From: Promethearchaeota archaeon
GTDB lineage: Archaea; Asgardarchaeota; Lokiarchaeia; Sigyniarchaeales; SOKP01
DNA length: 64,000 nucleotides
Direction: 5' to 3'
NCBI GenBank assembly: GCA_016839585.1
Contig: JAEOTZ010000021.1
Location: 1-64,000 of the forward strand
Below, piece by piece: positions 416 through 30,942 of this stretch. The notes under the pieces were generated by a model, which worked only from the letters and a program-made list of their open reading frames with translations, had not been told where the DNA came from and searched no databases. Each line of letters opens with the position of its first letter. The first letter of the stretch is position 1. The translations under genes and the position numbers were made by a program.

Positions 416-1366
416 TTATTTTTCTTGACCAGATTCTTTATCAATGAATTCGTTAACATCTGGATTTTTTCTCAATACATTTGATTTTTGTTCAATAACA
501 CTTATTCTTTTTTCTAAAATTGTCATTGATTCAATGATATTGTCAATTTTTTTATTAATATTTTTCATTTCATTTTGGATTTCTCCTAATTGATTGAGGG
601 TAAATTTCATCAATTCAGGTTCTTTTACGGGTTCAATTAACCATTTAAATATATTAGTTATTAACAACTGATTATCTAGTTGATTCAAACCAATATTAGA
701 ATCGTTTGTAAATATATCTATATCTCCCAGTGCGATTACTCTACCTTGACCATATTCAGTATATGCTCCTACAATTTTTTCTTCCTCTTCTTCCTCTCTA
801 ATCCATTTTTCATTAGAACTATTATATTTCTCTGACCACACATTTTTTTTATTTGTTAATAATAAAGGTTTAGCATCCCTACTCAAGAATAGGGAACAAG
901 TTCCTCCAATTATAACTTCTCTTAACCCATTTCCTATCTGTTTATTATTAAATCTTTGAATTTGTACTATACTTGTACTATTGTGGTTCACACTATTTAG
1001 TTCTTTTATTAAATTTTTCTGGAAATATATTCCAAAATGCGTTCCTGATATATCATTAAGATTTGTTTTCTGTAAATAATCTGCTCCATATTCACTTAAA
1101 ATTAGCAAGTTACCACCAATTCGGACAAAATCAACAATAGCTTTAATCTCAATATTCGAAAAATAATCATCTATAGGATTTCCTATAATTAAGATATCTA
1201 TATCCTGTAATAATTCCTGAGATAAGTCTCTATTCTCATTTTTCGTAATTTTAGTATTAAATCTCTGGAGAAGCTTAAAAAATTCAGAAAATTCATCCTC
1301 TTCAATATGTAACATCTCATTATGACTCAAATCAATAAGTGTAGTAGTTTTTTTCAGAAAAGGCAT
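416..1366 (-). CDS. GIFT/GldG/IFT52-like (class I GATase-like fold, DUF4350-type) domain protein with C-terminal coiled coil
   Basis: Motifs 'LIDLSHNE', 'DIDILIIGNP..YFS..EIKAIVDFVRIGGNLLIL' and 'GQGRVIALGDIDIFTND...DNQLLITNIFKWL'; heptad-rich last ~60 aa. Confidence 0.65.
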   Translation of the reverse strand: MPFLKKTTTLIDLSHNEMLHIEEDEFSEFFKLLQRFNTKITKNENRDLSQELLQDIDILIIGNPIDDYFSNIEIKAIVDFVRIGGNLLILSEYGADYLQKTNLNDISGTHFGIYFQKNLIKELNSVNHNSTSIVQIQRFNNKQIGNGLREVIIGGTCSLFLSRDAKPLLLTNKKNVWSEKYNSSNEKWIREEEEEEKIVGAYTEYGQGRVIALGDIDIFTNDSNIGLNQLDNQLLITNIFKWLIEPVKEPELMKFTLNQLGEIQNEMKNINKKIDNIIESMTILEKRISVIEQKSNVLRKNPDVNEFIDKESGQEK

Positions 1367-7672: not shown

Positions 7673-10600
7673 ATGGCTGAAATGAAAAAAGACGAAACAC
7701 TATTAGAAAAAGCACAGTTAGAAGAAAATAATTACAATTGGAAAGAAGCTGCATTTTTGTATGAATCAGCTGTCAATTACTTCTTAGAAAAGGATATGAT
7801 TGATAAGGTTGCATTTGCTTATAAAAAACTGGGCTTTACTAATGTAATGGTCTCAGAAACAGTAGATTCAGCTATTGATTTAAGGAATAATTGTAAAAAT
7901 GCTATTAATGCCTATGATAAAGCAATAAAAATATATAATCAGATTGGTTCCAATGAAGAAGAATTGGAGTGTATGGGAGAAAAATTATATGCTCAAATAT
8001 TTATCTCAAAATCTATTGAGGAAATAAAGAATTCGCTTAAAGATGCATTTAATATCTTCCTTGAAGCTAGTAAATTGTACTCTCAAAAAGGAGACAATGA
8101 AAGTAAAGCAAGAACTCTGAGTAGAGCTTTATTCTGCATAGGCTGGCTAGTAAATTATCTATCTGAAGAATCCGAATATGATCTTTTCTATGAAAATTAT
8201 TTAGACTTAATAAATAAATCTTTGAAAATTGCTATAGAAGTTAAAAATATCAGATATATAAGTGAAAATATAAATGGTATAGTACTATTTTATTTCTTTC
8301 AAATCTTTTTTAAGAATTTTAAAAAAGATGATAATTTTAAAAACCTAATGATTAATCTAATGAAAAATGTTAGTGATATCCTAGATCTATTTAGAGATTT
8401 TGAAGATGATAGAGCATTTAGCATGATATATTTTACTTATGGGCAGATATATTGTGCTTATGCCAGTCATTTTATTAAAAAAGAGATAGAACAGAGGGAT
8501 TGGTCAAATAAAGGAATCAATCTACTTGAAAAAGCTTTAGATTACGCAAGAAAAGCTAATAATAAGCCTTTAATAATCGCATCAATATTTTATATCGACT
8601 GGTGGGCTTTTTATTTTCGAAGAGTAAATTATGTTCAAAAAAGAATTTATAGTGATGTCAATGAAATGTTAAAACTAGGAAAGATTTTTTCTGAATTCTT
8701 TAATCACTTAGGTTTCTATGCATATTTTTTCCCAGTTTTCTATTATGGTAATATGTCTCAAAGAAGCTTCTTTACTATTCGCCAAAGAAAAACCTATGCT
8801 AAACAAGGTATAAAATATGCAAAAGAAGCATTAAGGTTAATCCCTGATTTACCTTACTCCGCATGGCCTTATCAGATGTTAACATACTGTTATTCAGAAT
8901 TAACACATCTTTCCAGTTTAAAAGATGAACAGAAGAAATATTCTGATAAAATGTTTAGTTATGCTCAAAAAGCAGTGAAGATAGGTGAAAAATTTGAAGG
9001 TGGACTGGCTCGAGCAGCTGGTTATTCTTCGATGTATAGAGCATATAAAACTCAAGCAGACTTTGCTATTGATAAAGAAAATAAGATAAGCATGTTATCT
9101 TCAGCTGCTAAGGTGGCTAAACAATATTTAGAATATACACCAGAATCTTACACAATAGAGTTGATAGGACAAATACGATTAGGTTTACTGTTAGAAGAAA
9201 TTGGAATAATTTCAGGAAACATAGAACCTTTAGAACAAGCAAAAGATATTTTTTTTAATTTGATTAATGAAAGCACTGCGAGTGGTCAATATTCTTATAC
9301 AGCTGCTACATGTGAATATATTGCACGTATAGAAGATAGATTAGGTAATAATAAATCTTCTGCTGAATTATATAATAAAGCTCAAGATTTTTATTCTAAA
9401 TCATTAAAAAATATCAAATACAAACCTCTTAAGGAACGAACTAAAGAAAAAATATCGTATGCGGAAGCTTGGGCTTTAATAGAGATCGCCAAGTTATATC
9501 ATAAAGAAGAGAACCATATTAATGCCAAAGACAGTTATGAAAAAGCTTGTCAAATCCTAAAAAGTTTACCTAGTTATAATTTCGAGGCTTCATATTATTA
9601 TGCTTGGATTTTTATAGAAGAAGCTGAATCCTTAAGTAAACAAGGAAAACATTCAGATGCTATAGAAAAATATACAGCTAGTAGCAAGTATTTTAATGAT
9701 GCATTAAATGTATTGGATAATGTTACACAGAAATCCAAGGATAAAATGGAAATAGAACGTATTAAAAAACTGATTAATGTAGCTAAAATTAGAATTAATT
9801 ATTGTAATGCTAGAGCAGATGTTGAAAATGCGAGAATTTTAGGGAAAAAGGGAGAGCATCTTGTAGCAGGAGAAAAATTTTCTATAGCGGCTTCGCAATT
9901 CAAATATATATGTACAAAGTTTGAAATAGAAAGGGAACGAAGAGAATTAGAAGCAATATATTACCTTTGCAAAGCTTGGGAAAATATGGAACTCGCAGAG
10001 AACTCTGAGGATTTTCAAAAGTACTCAAATGCCTCATCCTTATTTGATAAAGCCAGTAATCTATTCAGTGAAAATAAATTAAAAATGCTCTCTTTAGGTA
10101 ATTCTGCTTTCTGCCTAGCTTTAGAACTTGGTTGTAAATTTGATGAAACTACAAAAACAGAAGTAAAAGCAGAATTATATCCAAGAATTAAAATAATGAT
10201 TAGAAAAGCGGCTACTTCTTATAGAAAAGGTGGTTTTGAAAGTGGAGCCGAATGGGCATTAGCAACATCAACATATTTTGATGCAAGTTGGCATTTAATT
10301 AAAGCAGACCAAGAAGTAGAACTTGAGGAAAAAAATAAACATTTAGAAGTAGGATCTGGCTTTCTTAAGTCTGCTGCCGAACTTTTCGCTAAAGCAGGTT
10401 ATAAAAATAAAGAAAAAGAGCTCTTAGAAATATTAGATATGGTATTGAAAGAGAAAAAAATAATTGTTTCAGCTTTAAATACGATAATACAACCATCTAT
10501 AACAAAAAGTACTGTTGGTATAATAGCTCCAGCTTGCCCTGTTGAAACCAGTCAATCTCCAAAATTAAGTGATGTACGGAGTTATACACAAGAATATGAT

Positions 10601-11503
10601 TTAGTAGAGACTAAAATAGTAATTAAAGAGAAATATAAATTAATTTATAAAGATTTATTAAAGGAGCAACCTGAAAAACAAATTGATAAATTTAGAGTGG
10701 GAATTGCTCAAATTGGTATTTCTAATACTGTAGATACATTAAATGAGTTTTATGATGAAAAATCTACAGGTCTATTAACTCTTAAAGAAGAGAAAGTTGA
10801 CGAGATTAAATTAATAATAAAGGAAATGATTGATAAGGCTCACAAAGCGAGTGTAGACATTTTACTTTTTCCAGAAATGACAGTAGATCTCAAATATAAG
10901 CAATTTCTTGAAGATCTCTTAAATCTTGCTAAAATATATGAAATGTATATTATCCCTGGCTCATATCACAACATTGATACAAAAAGCAATGTGAGTTCAG
11001 TTATTGGTCCAGAAGGGATTCTCTGGCACCAAGAAAAGCATATCCCTGCCATTATAAGTCTTCAGAAAGGCAAATTTAAGGAGGGAATAGAAACAAGTAA
11101 TCTTCCACGAAACACAATCATATGTAATACTAAATATGGAAGAATAGTAATTGCTATTTGTCGCGATTTTCTTGATATGGATTTAAGAGTAGAGTTAAAA
11201 AACTTCGAGCCTCCTGTTGATATTATATTAAATCCCGCTTTTACACCTGTTACAGCTGATTTCAAAGCTGTTCATTTTGATGCTCGTAGATCAATTTATG
11301 CTTACACTTTCTTTGCAAATGTTGCAGACTATGGGAATTCCCTCATATATACACCAGAAAAAGAACGTATTGAAAGAACAATATCACCTAAAGAAGAAGG
11401 ATTAATTTATAAAGATGTTGATCTCTTTAAACTGCGTTCAGAAAGGAAAAAATGGCAGAAAATAAAAGAGACTGAAAAACGTTTCATTCAGAGTACGAGA
11501 TAG
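7673..11503 (+). CDS. Large alpha-solenoid (TPR/SNAP-like) protein with C-terminal carbon-nitrogen hydrolase (nitrilase) domain
   Basis: About 950 aa of 'A...Y.KA...Y' helical repeats, then 'FRVGIAQI', 'DILLFPE', 'IIPGSY', 'QEKH.P', 'IAICRDF' and 'FFANVA..GNS'. The E-K-C triad is intact. Confidence 0.85.
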   Translation: MAEMKKDETLLEKAQLEENNYNWKEAAFLYESAVNYFLEKDMIDKVAFAYKKLGFTNVMVSETVDSAIDLRNNCKNAINAYDKAIKIYNQIGSNEEELECMGEKLYAQIFISKSIEEIKNSLKDAFNIFLEASKLYSQKGDNESKARTLSRALFCIGWLVNYLSEESEYDLFYENYLDLINKSLKIAIEVKNIRYISENINGIVLFYFFQIFFKNFKKDDNFKNLMINLMKNVSDILDLFRDFEDDRAFSMIYFTYGQIYCAYASHFIKKEIEQRDWSNKGINLLEKALDYARKANNKPLIIASIFYIDWWAFYFRRVNYVQKRIYSDVNEMLKLGKIFSEFFNHLGFYAYFFPVFYYGNMSQRSFFTIRQRKTYAKQGIKYAKEALRLIPDLPYSAWPYQMLTYCYSELTHLSSLKDEQKKYSDKMFSYAQKAVKIGEKFEGGLARAAGYSSMYRAYKTQADFAIDKENKISMLSSAAKVAKQYLEYTPESYTIELIGQIRLGLLLEEIGIISGNIEPLEQAKDIFFNLINESTASGQYSYTAATCEYIARIEDRLGNNKSSAELYNKAQDFYSKSLKNIKYKPLKERTKEKISYAEAWALIEIAKLYHKEENHINAKDSYEKACQILKSLPSYNFEASYYYAWIFIEEAESLSKQGKHSDAIEKYTASSKYFNDALNVLDNVTQKSKDKMEIERIKKLINVAKIRINYCNARADVENARILGKKGEHLVAGEKFSIAASQFKYICTKFEIERERRELEAIYYLCKAWENMELAENSEDFQKYSNASSLFDKASNLFSENKLKMLSLGNSAFCLALELGCKFDETTKTEVKAELYPRIKIMIRKAATSYRKGGFESGAEWALATSTYFDASWHLIKADQEVELEEKNKHLEVGSGFLKSAAELFAKAGYKNKEKELLEILDMVLKEKKIIVSALNTIIQPSITKSTVGIIAPACPVETSQSPKLSDVRSYTQEYDLVETKIVIKEKYKLIYKDLLKEQPEKQIDKFRVGIAQIGISNTVDTLNEFYDEKSTGLLTLKEEKVDEIKLIIKEMIDKAHKASVDILLFPEMTVDLKYKQFLEDLLNLAKIYEMYIIPGSYHNIDTKSNVSSVIGPEGILWHQEKHIPAIISLQKGKFKEGIETSNLPRNTIICNTKYGRIVIAICRDFLDMDLRVELKNFEPPVDIILNPAFTPVTADFKAVHFDARRSIYAYTFFANVADYGNSLIYTPEKERIERTISPKEEGLIYKDVDLFKLRSERKKWQKIKETEKRFIQSTR

Positions 11504-11534: not shown

Positions 11535-12836
11535 CTAATCGATTTTTGCACCACATATAGGACAATTTTTTGGATTATGAAGTTGGAGTGTTGCACCACA
11601 AATTTTACATAGTTTTACTGTTCCTCTTTTCTTTGGAGGATTTAACGTTGTAATGGAAATGTGTTCTTCAAATTCAACCGAAGGTGTTAATTTTTCATCT
11701 GAAATCTGAGTTACTGATTCTCTTATCTTATTATTGTTATTAACCTTTACTTCTATCTCCCTACCAAAAAACCCTCCTACTCGCACTTTTTTCGTCATGT
11801 CTTGTCGTGGAATAGAAGGAGGTTTTAAAGATTTTAACTCTATTTCCTCCACTTCTCCATATAGATCTTGCTCTATTTCTTCTTCTACAGCTTGCTCAAT
11901 TATAGGTATTTCTTTTAATTCCTCTTCCAATTCTTCCTCATAGACCATTTTGACAAATTCTTCATCAAGTTTTAGCAATGTATGGCATTGAGGGCAATTA
12001 AAAATATGCATAAAACCAATATTTTTAGCAAGTGAGTACTTTGCTGCACAACAACTATGAAATTTAGTATTACAGTTAAAACATTTATGTATCTCATCAG
12101 AATGGGCTTCACAAATTGGACAAACTTCTTGTTCACAGATTGTACAAATTTCTTCATCATCAGGAGAGAGGGTGATTAAATCTACTGCCAATTTTTCATA
12201 AAAAATCTGATCTTCTACTAATATTTGATCTTCTTCATCGGTGTGAATTATTTTAAATTCTTTTTTGCTTTGAACTAATGATCCAAGAATATTGTGGAAG
12301 AGTTTTTCATCAGTGCAATAAAAAGTCCCACCATGTGTTTCACTTGAAATCACTTTCAGTTTGACATCATCATTATAGAATTTCTTGTCTCCAACTCGAA
12401 TAATATCAATAAAAGCTGAAAATTTTTTTGCTTTAATCAACAAATCATAAAGAGCTAAATGATACTCCTCAGATAATTTACTAGGAGAATCTGAAATAAT
12501 TATAACACGATAGTCTTTTTTAGCTTTTTGACTTCTTCTAAAAATGTAAGCAAGAATTTCATATAAGCCATTTTCTAAATAGCTATGTTCGACTTCGCGA
12601 GTGCCCCACGCGTCATTTATGGTATTTAAAACTGTTTCTGTTTCCTTTAAATCGTAAGCAGTAATAGGATTATCATCTTTCTGAAAAAATACTATACCAT
12701 AAGAGCTTAAAGCGTTAAATTTATTCTTTTCTTTAATAAATGCTCCAATGGCTTTCAGTAGTGGCTTTTTCTTTAGAAAATTCGTCGTTAAATCTATGTA
12801 AAATATGAATTCCTCAGAATTTATGGTCGTTAACAT
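11535..12836 (-). CDS. vWA domain + C4HC3 (PHD/RING-variant-like) zinc finger + C-terminal zinc-ribbon protein, paralog A
   Basis: vWA strands 'FIFYIDLT', 'RVIIISDSP', 'FIDIIRVG', 'SSETHGGTFY'; finger C-x2-C-x9-C-x2-C-x4-H-x2-C-x17-C-x2-C preceded by an extra CxxC; terminal CKIC...CPIC. Confidence 0.75.
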   Translation of the reverse strand: MLTTINSEEFIFYIDLTTNFLKKKPLLKAIGAFIKEKNKFNALSSYGIVFFQKDDNPITAYDLKETETVLNTINDAWGTREVEHSYLENGLYEILAYIFRRSQKAKKDYRVIIISDSPSKLSEEYHLALYDLLIKAKKFSAFIDIIRVGDKKFYNDDVKLKVISSETHGGTFYCTDEKLFHNILGSLVQSKKEFKIIHTDEEDQILVEDQIFYEKLAVDLITLSPDDEEICTICEQEVCPICEAHSDEIHKCFNCNTKFHSCCAAKYSLAKNIGFMHIFNCPQCHTLLKLDEEFVKMVYEEELEEELKEIPIIEQAVEEEIEQDLYGEVEEIELKSLKPPSIPRQDMTKKVRVGGFFGREIEVKVNNNNKIRESVTQISDEKLTPSVEFEEHISITTLNPPKKRGTVKLCKICGATLQLHNPKNCPICGAKID

Positions 12837-12987
12837 TTTATCATCAAAATCAATTCTAATTTAAACGCATATTAAAAAGTTATACAAGAATAATAATTGA
12901 AATTGTATTTATTTTTATTTATATTATTAAAATCTGTATTTTTATATTAAACAAAAGTATTATTAATAAGAATTTAATAATTTCAAG

Positions 12988-14325
12988 TTATAATTTAGTT
13001 CCACAATTCGGACATTTGAATTGTTCATTCGATGTTATCTGTGTTCCACATTCCGGACAAATCCTAAAACGGGGTTCCTTTTTCTTATCATTTAATTGGT
13101 GATTTATTGGTTCTTTAGATTCACTGATTTCTGTTTTTAAAGCAGGTTCTAAAGAAGTTTTAATAGTTTTTTCATATACTATTTTATCTCCTACTTTCTT
13201 CACTGTATAAACCTTTCCAAAGAATCCACCGATCCGAACTTTTCTAGGTTTTTCATCAGATAGTTGGTCTTTTAACGGATACATTTTTTCCTCTTCTGCT
13301 TTTTCTAATTCAAATGAAGGTTCTTTCATCTCTTCGATCTCAAATATTTTCTCTGATTCGCCTATTTCTAGAAAATTTTTTACAGATTTTATTTTAGGGT
13401 CAGATGTAGAAGCTTCAACAATTAAATTTTGATCAATTTGAAGTAGAACATCACAATCTGGATTTGGACATCTAAATATATGGGGTATACCAACATTGTT
13501 ATGAATTGTATAATTAGTAACACAACACTGATGAAAGCTAATGTTGCATGAATCACATAATAAAGGAATATCACTAAGTTCTCCACAGATTGGACAAATT
13601 TCTTCACGACAGAAATGACATTTTAAACCTGTTGCATTAACAGATTCTTTTAGTTTCCGAGCTAATTTATCATAAAAAGCAAAATCTTCTTTACTAATTT
13701 TTATATGATCTGGGCGATCTGCAAAAGTGCTTACTAGTTGTTTAGTTTTTACTAACTTTTTTATAACATCAGAAAACTCTTTTCTATCTTGTACATAAAA
13801 GATTCCTCCCTTAGTATCACTTGCCAATACATTTAATTTTACATCGTCACTAAAAAACCTAGTTCCCTTCTCAGAGATTCTTATTATGTCTATAAAAGTG
13901 GGAAAATATTTTATTTTTGATACTAAATTAAATAGTGCTTCTTGATATTCACTACCAAGATCACTAGGAGTATCTGTAATAATAATTACTCGGTTATATT
14001 TTGATTTTTTCCTTACGGTTTCAGCTATATAAGAGAAAATATAAAATAAACCATTTTCAAAAAAACTTGTCTTTTTGGGTCTAAACTTCCAATTTTCTTC
14101 AATAGCATTAGTAATTATACTAGCTTCTTTTTTATCAGTTATGAAAATAGGATTTCCTCTTTCTTGAAAAATAAGAAGAGAATAATGACCCTTTATATTA
14201 GCTTTATTCTTTTCCTCAATATAATATTTAATAGCTTTTATAAGTTCTTTCTTTCTCAACATCTCCTTAGTTAAATCTAAGTAAAAATAAATATCTTCAG
14301 TCATTATTCTCACATCACAATCCAA
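12988..14325 (-). CDS. vWA domain + C4HC3 zinc finger + C-terminal zinc-ribbon protein, paralog B (start probably the ATG at 14304)
   Basis: Colinear with paralog A: 'IYFYLDLTKEM', 'RVIIITDTP', 'FIDIIRIS', 'ASDTKGGIFY', 'CPIC..CDSC...FHQCC...CPNPDC', terminal CPEC...CPNC. Confidence 0.75.
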   Translation of the reverse strand: MDCDVRIMTEDIYFYLDLTKEMLRKKELIKAIKYYIEEKNKANIKGHYSLLIFQERGNPIFITDKKEASIITNAIEENWKFRPKKTSFFENGLFYIFSYIAETVRKKSKYNRVIIITDTPSDLGSEYQEALFNLVSKIKYFPTFIDIIRISEKGTRFFSDDVKLNVLASDTKGGIFYVQDRKEFSDVIKKLVKTKQLVSTFADRPDHIKISKEDFAFYDKLARKLKESVNATGLKCHFCREEICPICGELSDIPLLCDSCNISFHQCCVTNYTIHNNVGIPHIFRCPNPDCDVLLQIDQNLIVEASTSDPKIKSVKNFLEIGESEKIFEIEEMKEPSFELEKAEEEKMYPLKDQLSDEKPRKVRIGGFFGKVYTVKKVGDKIVYEKTIKTSLEPALKTEISESKEPINHQLNDKKKEPRFRICPECGTQITSNEQFKCPNCGTKL

Positions 14326-14486: not shown

Positions 14487-16487
14487 ATGGATGAATTTTT
14501 AAAACAAATAGGGCTTTCAGATAATGCTATAGAAATATATATTAAATCATTAGGAAGAACCTCTCTTACGTATTATGAACTCTACTCAATAGTTCCAAAA
14601 ATATCTGAAGAGGAATTTAAAAATTGTATTAATGAGCTTATAGATTCCGACTTAATAATTCAATTGATCCCTCAAAAACCGGAAATCCTTTTAAAATATT
14701 TAACTATTCCTCCTTTTGGACCAATAATTACTTATTACGAAAACATTGATGCGAATTTAACAAACATTAAAAATTCAATTCAGGAATTAATAGCTAATTC
14801 GTTAAAACAAATTTTTAAGAGTAATAGAATAGTTGATATGGATTCGGTTTTCACCGTTTTTCAAGAAATTAAAAAGGATATTGAAGAAGATACTATTATT
14901 CAAAAAAGAGAAATTGAAGATATTTTTGAGGGTATGGAGGATCTGAATAAGCTTAAAAAGGAACTTTCTGAAATTCATCAACAGATTAAAAGTATAACAC
15001 AAACTCAATTTTCAGATCTATTAAAATTAATTTCAAATCTTAAAGATGATTTAACTAAAAAAATTAATTCATTAGAGTTTAAAAAATATAAGAAAGAAAT
15101 TATAGAGATAATTGAAGAATTATTTAAAGCAAGATTAGATGAGATGTTAGGAAATTTTATTAATAAATTACATAATCAAATAGAAGATGAGTTTAGTAAT
15201 ACAAATAAATCTACTGATAATATTATGGAATCTGTTTTTCAATATCGTGAAGATTTTAAAATACTACTCTTAAACATGTTAAATAATTTTGAAACAAAAA
15301 TGAATACTATTTTCGGAATGATTAAAGATAATAAAGAAAATCTTGTAAATGAAATTCAAGCCCTTGAAAGCAAAATCACAGAGAATTTAAATGCTATAGT
15401 TAGAAATTCCATAAATGAAGTCTCAAAATTAAACAAACCTATTGAAAGTGTGATGAAAAATAGTTTTGAGATGTTGATTTCTTCTGATAAGGCATTGATT
15501 AATGATATTTGGATGATAAGGAGTATAACTAATGTTAATGAAGAGATTCAAAAGTTAATAAATAACACAAATAAAACTCTAGTTATTATTATTCCTAATC
15601 TTGAAAATCACCTAGCAATTGAACATTTTGGAAAACAATTTGGAAATTTAAAAATAAAGATCGCCTCTTCAGAAGCACACACTAATAGTCTTGTTAAGAA
15701 ATTAAAAAACATAAAAAATTTAGAGTATAAAACTCTGCAAAATGAAAATATAATTGCTTTGAAAGGGGATGATAATCATATCGTTATAGGTTTAATCCAA
15801 GATAATCAAAAAGAACCTCTAGAAGATTTTATTGGATTTGGGAGTAATTTTAAACCTTTAATAAAAATATTCGAGCCTATTATAGATACTACATGGGCAG
15901 CAGCCTATTCAGATACTTATTATGCGACTCAACAAACAAAAATTCAAACAACAGCCCCAAAGAAAGTTACTGCAATAAAGCCAGCAGTAATTAAGGAAGT
16001 AAAACCTATAACTCCTACAAAAACGAAGCCCATTAAAACTAATGTAGTATCCACTAAAAAAAAACTAGAAAAAGAAATTCCGAAACAGGTTAAAGAACCT
16101 ATTAAAATTCAAGAGAAAACTACTCCAAAACCTCTAGAAGTCACTACTGAAAACTCAACACCTAAGGAGAAAATTACAGATTTAACTCAAAAACTAAAGA
16201 AAAATTTAACTATACTCCCGAAAGCTGGTGATGAAGCAGGTATGTTTATCAATGATGCTTTTAATAGTCTTATTTTGCAATTGAATAATTTAAAGGGAGA
16301 AGACTTTAGTATAGAATTGCAAAAAATAGCGGACTTAATTCTAGAGAAAAAGGGTTTCTCAGTTATTTTACACCAATTAAGAAGTACAATAAATGAATAT
16401 AAAACACATTATAAATTGTTAAATAAAAATGAAAAAAATCAAATAGTCGAATTTATTAATAATTGGAAGCAGAAATTATTTCAATAA
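14487..16487 (+). CDS. TrmB-like N-terminal wHTH + long coiled coil + TrmB/PLD-like alpha/beta domain + Lys/Thr/Pro-rich linker + C-terminal helical domain
   Basis: 'LKQIGLSDNAIEIYIKSL...LTYYEL...ELIDSDLI' fits a TrmB HTH; 'IWMIRSITNVNEEIQKLINNTNKTLVIIIP' fits the start of a TrmB effector-like domain. Confidence 0.6.
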   Translation: MDEFLKQIGLSDNAIEIYIKSLGRTSLTYYELYSIVPKISEEEFKNCINELIDSDLIIQLIPQKPEILLKYLTIPPFGPIITYYENIDANLTNIKNSIQELIANSLKQIFKSNRIVDMDSVFTVFQEIKKDIEEDTIIQKREIEDIFEGMEDLNKLKKELSEIHQQIKSITQTQFSDLLKLISNLKDDLTKKINSLEFKKYKKEIIEIIEELFKARLDEMLGNFINKLHNQIEDEFSNTNKSTDNIMESVFQYREDFKILLLNMLNNFETKMNTIFGMIKDNKENLVNEIQALESKITENLNAIVRNSINEVSKLNKPIESVMKNSFEMLISSDKALINDIWMIRSITNVNEEIQKLINNTNKTLVIIIPNLENHLAIEHFGKQFGNLKIKIASSEAHTNSLVKKLKNIKNLEYKTLQNENIIALKGDDNHIVIGLIQDNQKEPLEDFIGFGSNFKPLIKIFEPIIDTTWAAAYSDTYYATQQTKIQTTAPKKVTAIKPAVIKEVKPITPTKTKPIKTNVVSTKKKLEKEIPKQVKEPIKIQEKTTPKPLEVTTENSTPKEKITDLTQKLKKNLTILPKAGDEAGMFINDAFNSLILQLNNLKGEDFSIELQKIADLILEKKGFSVILHQLRSTINEYKTHYKLLNKNEKNQIVEFINNWKQKLFQ

Positions 16488-17419: not shown

Positions 17420-18124
17420 ATGATACCAATGTATTGTAATATATGTGGAGTGGAAATAAAAGACCCTGATCAAAAATTTTGTGAAAGTTGTGGAAATAAG
17501 CTTCCACCTAAAGCTATTTCTGAACAAGGATCGGCACAAACAACGGTAACTCCGACTACAACGCCCCAACATCGCCCCAGTGGACTGTTTGACATTAACC
17601 GGAATTATTACATCCTTAAAGAAAAGTATTGGGACTGGGGAAGCGGTGAAATCTTAGATGAGAATAATCAAATAATCGGTAGAATGAAAAGAGTTATCTT
17701 AAGCATAAGACGTAGAGTTGAACTTCAAGAAGTTGATGGTACAATTTCAGCTACAATTCATGCTAAACTTGTATCTGCTCGTGGAGCTCAGGATTTGAAA
17801 ACACCTGATGGACAATTGATAGCAAGAATTAAGAAGAAGATTTTATCGTTATTTCGACCAGTCTTTTATTTGGAGGCCCCTGATGGTACTCAATGGTATA
17901 GAGCACAAGGTAAATTGATGGGATGGTCCTATAAAGTATATGATGTCTCAACAGGAAAAACAATCGCTGAAATCGAGAAAGCTGATAAATGGAGAGACAT
18001 CTTTCTTGGTGGAATGTTAGATTTTAAGGACACTTATGCTTTAAAAATACTAGATAATGAAACTGATCGAAGGATTTTACTTGGCTTTGTCTTATCAATA
18101 GATAATATATTACACGATTATTAA
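17420..18124 (+). CDS. N-terminal zinc ribbon + LURP-one/scramblase (tubby C-terminal-like) domain protein
   Basis: 'YCNICG....DQKFCESCG', then repeated beta motifs 'ILDENNQIIGR', 'PDGQLIARIKKKILS', 'GKTIAEIEK' and the C-terminal helix 'DTYAL.I....DRRILLGFVLSID'. Confidence 0.8.
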   Translation: MIPMYCNICGVEIKDPDQKFCESCGNKLPPKAISEQGSAQTTVTPTTTPQHRPSGLFDINRNYYILKEKYWDWGSGEILDENNQIIGRMKRVILSIRRRVELQEVDGTISATIHAKLVSARGAQDLKTPDGQLIARIKKKILSLFRPVFYLEAPDGTQWYRAQGKLMGWSYKVYDVSTGKTIAEIEKADKWRDIFLGGMLDFKDTYALKILDNETDRRILLGFVLSIDNILHDY

Positions 18125-18284: not shown

Positions 18285-19241
18285 ATGACTATAACTTATG
18301 AAGAATTTCTAGTTTTTGATTTAGAGAATGATGGAGAAAAAACGAAGTTAGATATAAAACAAGAAGATCTCCAGAACTATTTGAATCCTGAGCAGGTCTT
18401 AGTTATCATCCGAGAAGATTTAAGAAGAATTTATATTTGGAAGGGAGCGAAATCCGCAGTAAGAAAGAGATTTATTAGTTCAAGAGTTGCACATGATTTA
18501 CAAAAAGAATTGTTAGATGATCCTCGATATCATCGCTGTAAAATAGTATCTATAGATCAAGGTGATGAAATTCAAGAATTTTTAAACGCTTTTCAACTAG
18601 AATCAATGGAAGTTACTGAAAGATTACCTGATATGCGATACATACGAAATATCGAACGAGAAAGTATGAAAGAAGCAGAACAAATTGCTAAAGGAAAAAC
18701 TGAAGTCGATTACTATTCACCAGCGCTTCAAGATATAAGTAGCGATGTTGTTATGTCCTCTATCGTTCAAAAACCAAAATTGACTATTGGATTATCTGAA
18801 GAAGAGCAACATCAGATTAAGAAAAAAATACTTAAAACTGAAGTTCCCCTTGATTATAAGAGACAAAATCTAATTCTTGGCCATACATTATTTGCTGCTG
18901 TAACCAAGATTTCAAAAGTTTTCGATGAAGATATAGAGGAAATTGTATGGGAGCCAGTCATGAAAGTTCCAAAAGAAATAATGAATTTAGATAATCATAA
19001 ATTAAGAGTATATTTAAATAAAAATAAGGGTATTGTTGAGGCTGTAGAAGTATTAAAAAAAGAAGAAAAGCCAAATCAAAACGCTATACCTAAAAAGATA
19101 ACTTCGAAACCATCACCCACTAAGAGTTCTCCTCCTAAGAAGAAGACTTCATTGACACCAATGCCACCAAAACCTGCATCGATGAAAGAAAATTCAAAAG
19201 AAACTGAAACTCAAGAAAAGCAAAACAAACAGGAACCATAA
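18285..19241 (+). CDS. Gelsolin-domain protein (single gelsolin-like domain + unknown domain + Pro/Lys-rich tail)
   Basis: 'LNPEQVLVI....RRIYIWKGAKS....RF.....A..L.......KIVSIDQGDE.QEFLNAF' matches the gelsolin repeat consensus. Confidence 0.85.
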   Translation: MTITYEEFLVFDLENDGEKTKLDIKQEDLQNYLNPEQVLVIIREDLRRIYIWKGAKSAVRKRFISSRVAHDLQKELLDDPRYHRCKIVSIDQGDEIQEFLNAFQLESMEVTERLPDMRYIRNIERESMKEAEQIAKGKTEVDYYSPALQDISSDVVMSSIVQKPKLTIGLSEEEQHQIKKKILKTEVPLDYKRQNLILGHTLFAAVTKISKVFDEDIEEIVWEPVMKVPKEIMNLDNHKLRVYLNKNKGIVEAVEVLKKEEKPNQNAIPKKITSKPSPTKSSPPKKKTSLTPMPPKPASMKENSKETETQEKQNKQEP

Positions 19242-30423: not shown

Positions 30424-30942
30424 ATGCGGTCATTTGTTTTTAAGGTCTTAATCGCGGGGAATGGCGGAGTGGGTAAAACTTCATTGCTACGTAGATATGT
30501 AGATGGATTCTTTGATGATTCTACTATTGAAACGGTAGGTGTGGATTTCTTCATTAAAGAAATCGAATTTAACAATACTTATTGCATGTTGCAATTGTGG
30601 GATTTAGGGGGTCAAGAAAGATTTAGACATTTAATAGAAAATTATGTAATGGGTGCTAGGGGAGCCCTCCTTTTATTTGATATGACAAGGATGCCAAAAA
30701 TCGAAAGTATTTTACAATGGGTGAATATTATAAGAATACATGATTTGAATTTACCTATAATACTTGTTGGAACTAAACTTGACCTCGAGGATGCTATTGC
30801 TGTCGATGATGAAAGTGCAAATCATATAAAAAATGCCTTTAATATGATTAAATATGTTAAAACCTCTGCTAAAAATGGTGATGGTGTTAAAGAACCATTT
30901 GAAATATTAGCAAAAACCATAAAGAAAGGAATTAAATACTGA
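30424..30942 (+). CDS. Ras-superfamily small GTPase, Rab-like
   Basis: G1 GNGGVGKT, G2 TVGVDF, G3 WDLGGQERF, G4 TKLD, G5 TSAK; no C-terminal Cys prenylation motif. Confidence 0.95.
   Translation: MRSFVFKVLIAGNGGVGKTSLLRRYVDGFFDDSTIETVGVDFFIKEIEFNNTYCMLQLWDLGGQERFRHLIENYVMGARGALLLFDMTRMPKIESILQWVNIIRIHDLNLPIILVGTKLDLEDAIAVDDESANHIKNAFNMIKYVKTSAKNGDGVKEPFEILAKTIKKGIKY

Follow-up and report, generated by a model that had tools for sequence, protein, structure and literature searches.

Two adjacent paralogous genes of a Promethearchaeota archaeon (class Lokiarchaeia), here called A and B, encode a real, conserved and undescribed variant of the known theme in which a von Willebrand factor type A (vWA) domain is followed by a RING-type zinc finger. 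The genes lie in a window of 64,000 nucleotides (positions 1 to 64,000 of the forward strand of contig JAEOTZ010000021.1, assembly GCA_016839585.1; G+C 24-33%), by which the whole stretch of DNA analysed is meant. As modelled, the vWA domain of A belongs to the intracellular structural class of the TFIIH subunit p44 and of Rpn10. The pair is tentatively read as a heteromeric ubiquitin-ligase-like adaptor, the likeliest of the functions considered, which we hold to be plausible without being probable.

An earlier note, made from the sequence alone, had described A and B as co-directional, colinear paralogues, and this proved right. Both open reading frames (ORFs) were found on the minus strand, with the same order and domain architecture, and the two proteins could be aligned end to end with 37% identity (E 5e-84), far beyond chance. 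The likely start codon of gene A is the ATG at 14304, since the identical (100%) protein in the database, P0001, has 438 aa and the A orthologues begin with 'MTED' in the family alignment. The features of the two genes are as follows.

12988..14325, minus strand: gene A, ORF of 445 aa from TTG; probable true start ATG 14304 (438 aa)
13747..14298, minus strand: A vWA domain, residues 10-193, YLDLTKE without DxSxS (AlphaFold2 model, VIA-align Z 19.9)
13438..13692, minus strand: A linker helix and RING/PHD-type finger, residues 212-296 (invariant columns, domain model, RING matches)
13252..13410, minus strand: A acidic linker, residues 306-358, predicted disordered (model confidence mostly <50; variable columns)
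13168..13245, minus strand: A beta-meander with GGFFG, residues 361-386 (invariant columns, AlphaFold2 strands)
12991..13068, minus strand: A C-terminal zinc ribbon, residues 420-445, with C423, C426, C438 and C441 (weak Pfam match, model confidence about 85)
12837..12987, minus strand: AT-rich A-B spacer, 151 bp (sequence)
11535..12836, minus strand: gene B, ORF of 433 aa, colinear paralogue of A
12267..12815, minus strand: B vWA domain, residues ~8-190, YIDLTTN (alignment to A)
11970..12215, minus strand: B linker helix and finger, residues ~208-289 (invariant columns of the B family)
11715..11792, minus strand: B GGFFG beta-meander, residues ~349-374 (alignment to A)
11538..11615, minus strand: B C-terminal zinc ribbon with C410, C413, C425 and C428 (alignment; weak rubredoxin-like match)

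The structure of A was predicted with AlphaFold2 from an 86-sequence alignment of both families (mean predicted local distance difference test, pLDDT, 73.6; predicted template modelling score, pTM, 0.56). Residues 10-193 were modelled with a pLDDT of about 90 as a Rossmann-like beta-alpha-beta sandwich with a six-stranded sheet, which places the domain in the vWA superfamily. Its strands were at residues 10-17, 48-53, 59-65, 110-117, 143-150 and 175-178 and its helices at 25-42, 68-81, 89-106, 125-138, 161-170 and 181-193. When solved chains were aligned to this domain with VIA-align, 661 reached Z>=8, with vWA domains leading. At E<=1, Pfam detected no vWA domain in either of the two proteins; the vWA model PF00092 was matched at E<=0.01 by 40 of the 86 family members (best 1.7e-6), and a precomputed match to it is on record for about 20 orthologues of B. 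The vWA fold of A and B is thus supported by the matches within the family together with the confidence of the model and its best Z of 19.9. The DxSxS motif of a functional metal-ion-dependent adhesion site (MIDAS) was absent from both proteins, which carry D-L-T-K-E in A and D-L-T-T-N in B, as the earlier note had reported in calling the site degenerate. The metal-face loops are nevertheless conserved. Conservation in the vWA domain peaks at D17, S87-L93 and D118-S121, and D17, S87, E90-L93, D118, P120 and S121 are invariant in all 86 members. These peaks are presumably the three loops lining the metal face, in agreement with the hhalign register, in which D-L-T-x-x of A/B falls on D-T-S-R-S of two further paralogues, D and E. 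Since the loops are invariant, the face appears to be remodelled rather than decayed and, with D17 and D118 kept, metal binding of another kind may be possible in A/B.

In a Foldseek comparison of the A model with the PDB, TFIIH chains came top (9pd4_E at 8.7e-10, followed by 8ebu_E, 7egb_2 and 7o4k_4, the last at 4e-9). The top rows for the vWA domain were p44/Ssl1 and p34/Tfb4 (9e-10 to 4e-9), with complement factor B, a bacterial vWA domain, a BRCA1-A chain (5.7e-7), ArnAB (8e-7) and Rpn10 (~1e-6) lower in the list. The vWA chain of BRCA1-A is MERIT40. VIA-align likewise gave p44 as the closest structural neighbour: human p44 was matched with Z 19.9-18.2 (root-mean-square deviation, rmsd, 2.6 Å over 178 residues), and p44 chains occupied ranks 1-13 (Z 19.9-18.4). 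They were followed by yeast Ssl1 (17.8), Rpn10 (17.6; rmsd 2.8 over 178 residues), an ArnAB chain and an Entamoeba lectin vWA (both 17.6), Sec23a (16.8) and the BRCA1-A chain (16.4). Among the matched chains, 6nmi_E, 8ebs_E and 8ebt_E are GTF2H2/p44, 4wfq is Ssl1, and 5oqj_4, 7ml0_4 and 7k01_4 are Tfb4. On the model, the lead of p44 over the other vWA matches, about 2 Z units, is real but modest, and the domain belongs to the intracellular p44/Rpn10-like structural class, which does not thereby place it in the p44 family. Membership of that family was not found by sequence: neither A nor B matched Ssl1 (PF04056) in Pfam at E<=1, and none of the 86 family members did so at E<=0.01. Searches of solved structures with A and with the A/B family profile left the vWA part without a significant match, the best matches being zinc modules (E ~0.01-0.03), and NCBIfam gave nothing useful for A/B. 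The resemblance to the p44/p34/Rpn10/MERIT40 class proposed in the earlier note was upheld for A by both structure searches, and by sequence for D and E, which reach Rpn10 and p44. The best sequence match of the D/E vWA domain is the bacterial BatA-like chain 4rck (3.1e-14), so that the class is not exclusively eukaryote-like.

In the finger of A, C236-x2-C239 is followed by C244-x2-C247-x9-C257-x2-C260-x4-H265-x2-C268-x17-C286-x4-C291. The finger of B carries C231, C234, C239, C242, D247, C252, C255, H260, C262, C263, C281 and C284, and the spacing of the last knuckle is x4 in A and x2 in B. The 86 aligned members of both families show no exception at any Cys/His ligand, at C267 or at D252. 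A helix at residues 212-221 precedes the finger in the A model, where this block had a pLDDT of ~78-91 up to about residue 300; modelled separately from 34 sequences translated from fetched loci, the finger reached a pLDDT of 91.8 and a pTM of 0.83. In a VIA-align scan of 48,161 representative chains, independent of Foldseek, no chain reached Z>=8 and seven had Z>=5. FANCL in the Fanconi core complex ranked first with Z 6.3, a level that by the tool's own guidance can reflect a common arrangement. It was followed by the chain 4ccg_Y of a complex of a ubiquitin-conjugating enzyme (E2) with a ubiquitin ligase (E3) (6.2), the Ltn1/listerin RING (5.9 and 5.5), Deltex (5.4), Nse1 (5.1) and HOIL-1 (5.1); the C-terminal RING of p44 reached 4.5. 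By title, RING-type domains made up the large majority of the 50 best rows. With its invariant C4HC3 ligands, eight in number, its confident model and RING domains as top matches (Z <=6.3), the finger is, as modelled, a cross-brace binuclear treble clef of the RING/PHD kind, with no finer placement. The earlier reading of C4HC3 as a RING/PHD ligand pattern therefore held.

The earlier note had also described this finger as preceded by an extra CxxC. The ligand pattern was found exactly as written, but it is probably another pair that is extra. In the hhalign alignment, the first CxxC of D/E falls on C236/C239 of A, while the CPIC of A/B faces a Cys-free stretch in D/E. Judged from this alignment, C236/C239 is probably the ancestral first ligand pair and, because of this correspondence, the added knuckle may be CPIC (C244/C247) with C267. 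C244, C247 and C267, perhaps with D252, may form an added third zinc site. The first knuckle reads CPIC and the last CP-x-C, and both are typical of E2-binding RINGs.

Beyond the finger, the acidic linker of A and a second segment at residues 389-416 were predicted to be disordered. The meander between them consists of strands at 361-365, 371-378 and 381-386, and G366, G367, F369 and G370 of its GGFFG motif, which the earlier note had not listed, are invariant in the 86 members of both families. The terminal zinc ribbon seen in the earlier note was retained for both proteins: each ends in CxxC-x11-CxxC with invariant Cys. This motif gave weak Pfam matches to Zn_ribbon_3 (E 3.8e-5, below the cut-off) and, in A, also to Zn_Ribbon_1. 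The ESM Atlas gave no usable match for the C-terminal module of A (residues 355-445).

In a collection of 5.8 billion proteins, 408 homologues of A and 453 of B were found at E<=0.001, and every organism label given was Asgard. A profile of both families matched 210 proteins at the same threshold among 1.84 billion representatives; no A-B fusion occurred among the 150 of these that were listed, in which full-length matches had 384-527 aa. A group of ~1,100 aa, related to a third paralogue, C, combines one unit with a long coiled coil (plus a beta-rich C-terminal domain). The distribution was determined in 301 genomes of the phylum at E<=1e-10. The profile was matched in 74 of them; by family, it was found in 66 of 68 genomes of the window's family (f1), 6 of 7 of the second family of the order (f2) and the single genome of family f4 (weakly, 1e-12), and in none of the 224 genomes of the other 27 families sampled. 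As far as the sampled genomes show, the A/B family is limited to one class, the Lokiarchaeia.

Synteny across the Lokiarchaeia, which the earlier note had raised, was looked at in 150 of 202 profile matches listed and in fetched loci: the tandem pair is kept in f1, and a single copy is found in genus g3 and in most of f2. Among the matches listed, adjacent same-strand pairs were present in at least 20 of 22 genomes of the window's genus (G252 gave only a C-type match and G225 none) and in at least 24 of 28 genomes of genus g4, in two more of which the two copies lie on different short contigs. Pairs also occurred in genera g2, g5, g6, g7 and g8, adjacency and order being kept across at least seven genera. 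By the coordinates of the matches, A-B spacing is ~150-190 bp in relatives too. Eight pairs of adjacent NCBI locus tags join A- and B-type orthologues, and the order A then B was kept in the fetched loci L032, L033 and L034. A single match was listed in all four genomes of g3 and in five of the six f2 genomes with a match; the sixth, G282, has two.

The origin of the pair was traced with a quick maximum-likelihood tree, with the Shimodaira-Hasegawa-like approximate likelihood ratio test (SH-aLRT) as the only support measure. Its 38 rows (13 from the window and the loci, 20 representatives and five C-type sequences; many available sequences were left out) were rooted on the C-type paralogues. 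A, B and the g3 singles grouped together (SH-aLRT 99) to the exclusion of the f2 singles; within this group, the A clade had a support of 100 and the B clade of 99, and g3 was joined to B weakly (80). A 50-row tree without g3 was compatible, with the single-copy sequences forming a clade (96). A and B are co-orthologues of the single gene in the sister family f2, and the tree places the A/B duplication within f1, after its split from f2; g3 may either predate the duplication or have lost A. Since the duplication, by the tree and the copy counts, is a young event within one archaeal family, A and B cannot be, as a pair, orthologous to p44/p34. The two families are about equally conserved (mean column identity 71% in A and 72% in B), each with invariant residues of its own, and the invariant zinc ligands, GGFFG motif and MIDAS-face loops in both indicate that both copies are kept under constraint.

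Five members of the family, A to E, were found in the genome of the window (G000). The three outside the window are the following.

Contig C26:35456-36400 (L003:1477-2631): paralogue C, 384 aa
Contig C37:6106-7284 (L036:1465-2646): paralogue D, 393 aa
Contig C17:1100-2269 (L037:1079-2281): paralogue E, 400 aa

Paralogue C has a vWA domain without MIDAS (NGLTPE), a C4HC3 finger without the extra knuckle and with a Trp-rich helix (HKTCWAQW), and a zinc ribbon at its end. In D and E, the metal site is preserved (DTSRSM, with DxSxS intact), and the vWA domain is followed by two fingers, the first resembling the finger of A/B and the second, at the C-terminus, of RING-H2 type. Their length and the order of their domains bring D and E closer to p44 than A/B. 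Both pass the Pfam Ssl1 cut-off of 27 bits (D 46.7, E 35.7), although the general VWA_2/VWA models outscore Ssl1 on them (66.1 and 52.4 bits) and weak Tfb4 matches were seen too. A profile of 13 D/E sequences was aligned with the A/B profile by hhalign over 284 columns, corresponding to the vWA domain and the first finger (probability 99.5%, E 3.7e-22). Against solved chains, the D/E profile matched, after 4rck, S. pombe Rpn10 (1.4e-12), human p44 (1.3e-11), human S5a (5.9e-11) and an ArnAB chain (1.4e-7), and the last finger matched Arkadia (3.5e-7) and RNF165 (2e-5) by sequence. Protein D was found in 77 of the 301 genomes (f1 68/68, f2 7/7, f4 1/1, other families 0/224). Ssl1 was matched at E<=1e-5 in 75 (f1 67/68, f2 6/7, f4 1/1, others 0/224) and in none of 14 control genomes. 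It is highly doubtful that the vWA modules of eukaryotic p44/p34 and Rpn10 descend from this five-member archaeal family, or were exchanged with it very early, with A/B as an independent replay of the formation of a vWA-RING heterodimer from a homomer.

In the function proposed here, A and B would be sister subunits of a Lokiarchaeia-specific vWA-RING scaffold. The remodelled vWA face of each subunit, devoid of the metal motif, would be used for protein docking, and each subunit would present its RING/PHD-type finger and, beyond a flexible acidic tether, its GGFFG hairpin and zinc ribbon. A single-copy ancestor would have formed a homomer; after duplication, A and B would assemble head to tail, the vWA domain of one subunit being bound by the finger, or by the C-terminal zinc module, of its partner, an arrangement modelled on the contact between the p34 vWA domain and the p44 RING in TFIIH. 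The conserved adjacency of the two genes lends this heteromer indirect support. The finger would recruit one of the E2 enzymes of the genome, and the pair would act as a ubiquitin-ligase-like adaptor for a system of a ubiquitin-like protein, an activating enzyme (E1), an E2 and a JAB peptidase. Three E2 genes, on contigs C61, C5 and C89, were detected in the genome above the Pfam cut-off, and an operon on contig C61:133000-146000 (L048) encodes a ubiquitin-like protein (110 aa), an E1 (ThiF), an E2 (UQ_con) and a JAB peptidase. No RING was found among the 11 ORFs scanned in the region of this operon, which makes the vWA-RING family a natural source of the missing E3-type partners. Two further proteins with ubiquitin-like C-termini were observed near the operon.

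Several results weigh against an adaptor function of this kind, to which the level of the best finger Z value adds. No ubiquitin-system gene was found beside the A/B pair, and with an AT-rich spacer of 151 bp between them the two genes may not be co-transcribed. With the finger alone, Foldseek gave no match at E<=0.001, and its weak list mixed RING, C1, PHD and p44/Ssl1 domains. By profile, the finger matched the PHD finger of MTF2 (0.0013) ahead of RAF C1 domains (0.014), Nse1 (0.024) and Doa10 (0.031). Its F-R-C puts an aromatic residue two positions before the seventh ligand, which is a hallmark of PHD fingers, and its C4HC3 spacing fits the PHD pattern. Many active RINGs carry an Arg/Lys 'linchpin' after the last Cys, whereas A has Asp and B His/Glu at this position. 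Finally, the RING of p44 is a structural domain, so that a RING fold beside a vWA domain need not be a ligase.

The last two points, together with the gene beside A, bear on a first alternative, in which the pair would be a non-catalytic scaffold of the p44/p34 kind that holds or regulates a helicase/ATPase or a coiled-coil protein, without ubiquitin-type chemistry. This alternative is unlikely in our view, though it deserves to be taken seriously. The gene in question heads a conserved block divergent from the pair.

14487-16487, plus strand: coiled-coil protein, 666 aa, divergent from gene A
17420-18124, plus strand: zinc ribbon and LURP-one/scramblase-like protein (same block across f1)
18285-19241, plus strand: gelsolin-repeat protein (same block across f1)

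This block, comprising genes for the 666-aa protein, a CDP-alcohol phosphatidyltransferase, a LURP-one-related (LOR)/scramblase-like protein and gelsolin, was present in L032, L033 and L034. L030 and L035, the loci with a single copy, contain it as well, with two additional genes in between; the f2 loci L029 and L031 lack it. The coiled-coil gene thereby adjoins the pair or the single copy in five of seven fetched loci (L030, L032-L035), and its product gave only weak matches of coiled-coil type (ZorA tail, LeoBC, a MotA-family chain), with no winged helix-turn-helix found by Pfam at E<=1. Such a scaffold would agree with this adjacency, with a finger devoid of the linchpin and with p44/Ssl1 and p34/Tfb4, both structural subunits, as top structural matches. 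Against it, the coiled-coil synteny is lost in both f2 loci, and the family is limited to one class, whereas XPB/XPD-type helicases are widespread in archaea. The RING-H2 finger of D/E is, moreover, similar in sequence to active E3 RINGs.

Distinctly improbable is a second alternative, by which A and B would be independent, partly redundant paralogues without mutual binding, and their adjacency a trace of tandem duplication. A tandem duplication by its nature leaves the copies side by side, a single copy suffices in g3 and in the second family, and the AT-rich spacer may hold a separate promoter for each gene. However, adjacency and order have been kept across the genera listed above, both families are about equally conserved, and A and B have diverged deeply (37% identity), each family with invariant residues of its own, which is easier to reconcile with subfunctionalised partners than with redundant copies. 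Very unlikely is a third alternative, a reader or adaptor of PHD type that acts on proteins of chromatin or transcription and whose finger would bind a peptide tail or nucleic acid and not an E2: it would suit the C4HC3 spacing, the profile match to MTF2, with other PHD fingers next, and the match of paralogue-type relatives to Pfam PHD (8.9e-6), but the structure scan independent of Foldseek was dominated by RING E3 domains, and C1 domains were matched equally weakly, so that the sequence signal is that of the whole treble-clef superfamily.

The adaptor reading was compared with known systems. In TFIIH p44 and p34, as in A/B, zinc fingers follow a vWA domain whose metal motif is not functional, and D/E resemble p44 further in their Ssl1 and human p44 matches. 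According to an excerpt of PMC5737387, the vWA domain of p34 binds the RING of p44, with a second interface in the zinc domain of p34, so that there, too, two paralogous vWA-zinc proteins are bound, in this case by a RING-vWA contact. A/B differ from TFIIH in that they themselves lack a sequence match to Ssl1, Tfb4 or p44, that the finger of A matches the p44 RING less well than FANCL and others, and that a GGFFG meander and a zinc ribbon stand where p44 has its second finger. Having occurred within a single archaeal family, their duplication is an event separate from the one that split p44 and p34 and, in the genomes sampled, the A/B family was not found outside one class. Rpn10/S5a is likewise an intracellular vWA protein close to A in structure and to the D/E profile in sequence; in Rpn10, however, the vWA domain is followed by ubiquitin-interacting motif (UIM) helices and zinc fingers are absent, whereas A/B carry fingers and no UIM was detected in them by Pfam.

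The C4HC3 or PHD-like E3 RINGs (FANCL, the Doa10/MARCH RING-CH, Nse1) have the cross-brace fold and the ligand order of A/B, and all matches to them were weak (FANCL Z 6.3 and 6.2, Nse1 5.1; by sequence, Doa10 0.031 and Nse1 0.024). A/B differ in three further invariant Cys (the CxxC and C267), suggesting a third zinc site. RGLG ligases carry a copine-type vWA domain and then a C-terminal RING on one polypeptide. The order of vWA and RING in one chain is that of A/B, a likeness by description only, as no RGLG protein was in the PDB lists; these plant RGLG-type proteins are established E3 ligases according to an excerpt of PMC12647413. In ArnB/ArnA of Sulfolobus and in Sec23/24, a vWA domain also works with a zinc finger (ArnAB Z 17.6, Sec23a 16.8), but there the finger precedes the vWA domain or sits on the partner protein, and the beta-barrel, helical and gelsolin domains of Sec23/24 are absent from A/B. 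A Sec23/24-like reading was rejected, as the order in A/B is vWA, finger, linker and ribbon and only the trunk aligns (Z 16.8).

In the literature, no description of an Asgard vWA-RING or p44-like family was found, with the earlier survey of prokaryotic RINGs (Burroughs et al. 2011), which may cover vWA-RING fusions, lying outside the search; in PMC6222260, Asgard, TFIIH and p44 occur only in unrelated passages. To our knowledge, Rpn10 and the core subunits of TFIIH other than the helicases are considered to have arisen in eukaryotes, and the ubiquitin-like system of Asgard archaea has few known partners of E3 type. In this family, p44/Rpn10-class vWA domains are joined to RING-type fingers; almost all genomes of one Asgard order have retained it, and it has expanded to five paralogues there. 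The family gives clonable candidates for archaeal E3 ligases or adaptors, and may offer a natural example of the conversion of a homomer into a heteromer. D and E, if specifically related to p44 or Rpn10, would join the eukaryotic signature proteins, a prospect tempered by their restriction to the Lokiarchaeia (0 of 224 genomes sampled elsewhere in the phylum).

Other genes of the window were observed beside the pair. The protein encoded at 7673-11503 (plus strand, 1,276 aa) has a weak N-terminal MIT domain, TPR repeats and a C-terminal carbon-nitrogen hydrolase domain, the last of which matched in PADLOC the nitrilase of defence-associated reverse transcriptase (DRT) systems (4.3e-13). It was rejected as a partner, since it lay beside the pair in none of the seven fetched loci, and a defence-system reading of the family was set aside, as PADLOC gave no defence-family match for A to E. 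An IFT52 GIFT/OST48-like domain protein is encoded at 416-1366 (minus strand) and a Ras-family small GTPase at 30424-30942 (plus strand). Together with the gelsolin-repeat protein, these two eukaryote-like genes are Asgard hallmarks in the window.

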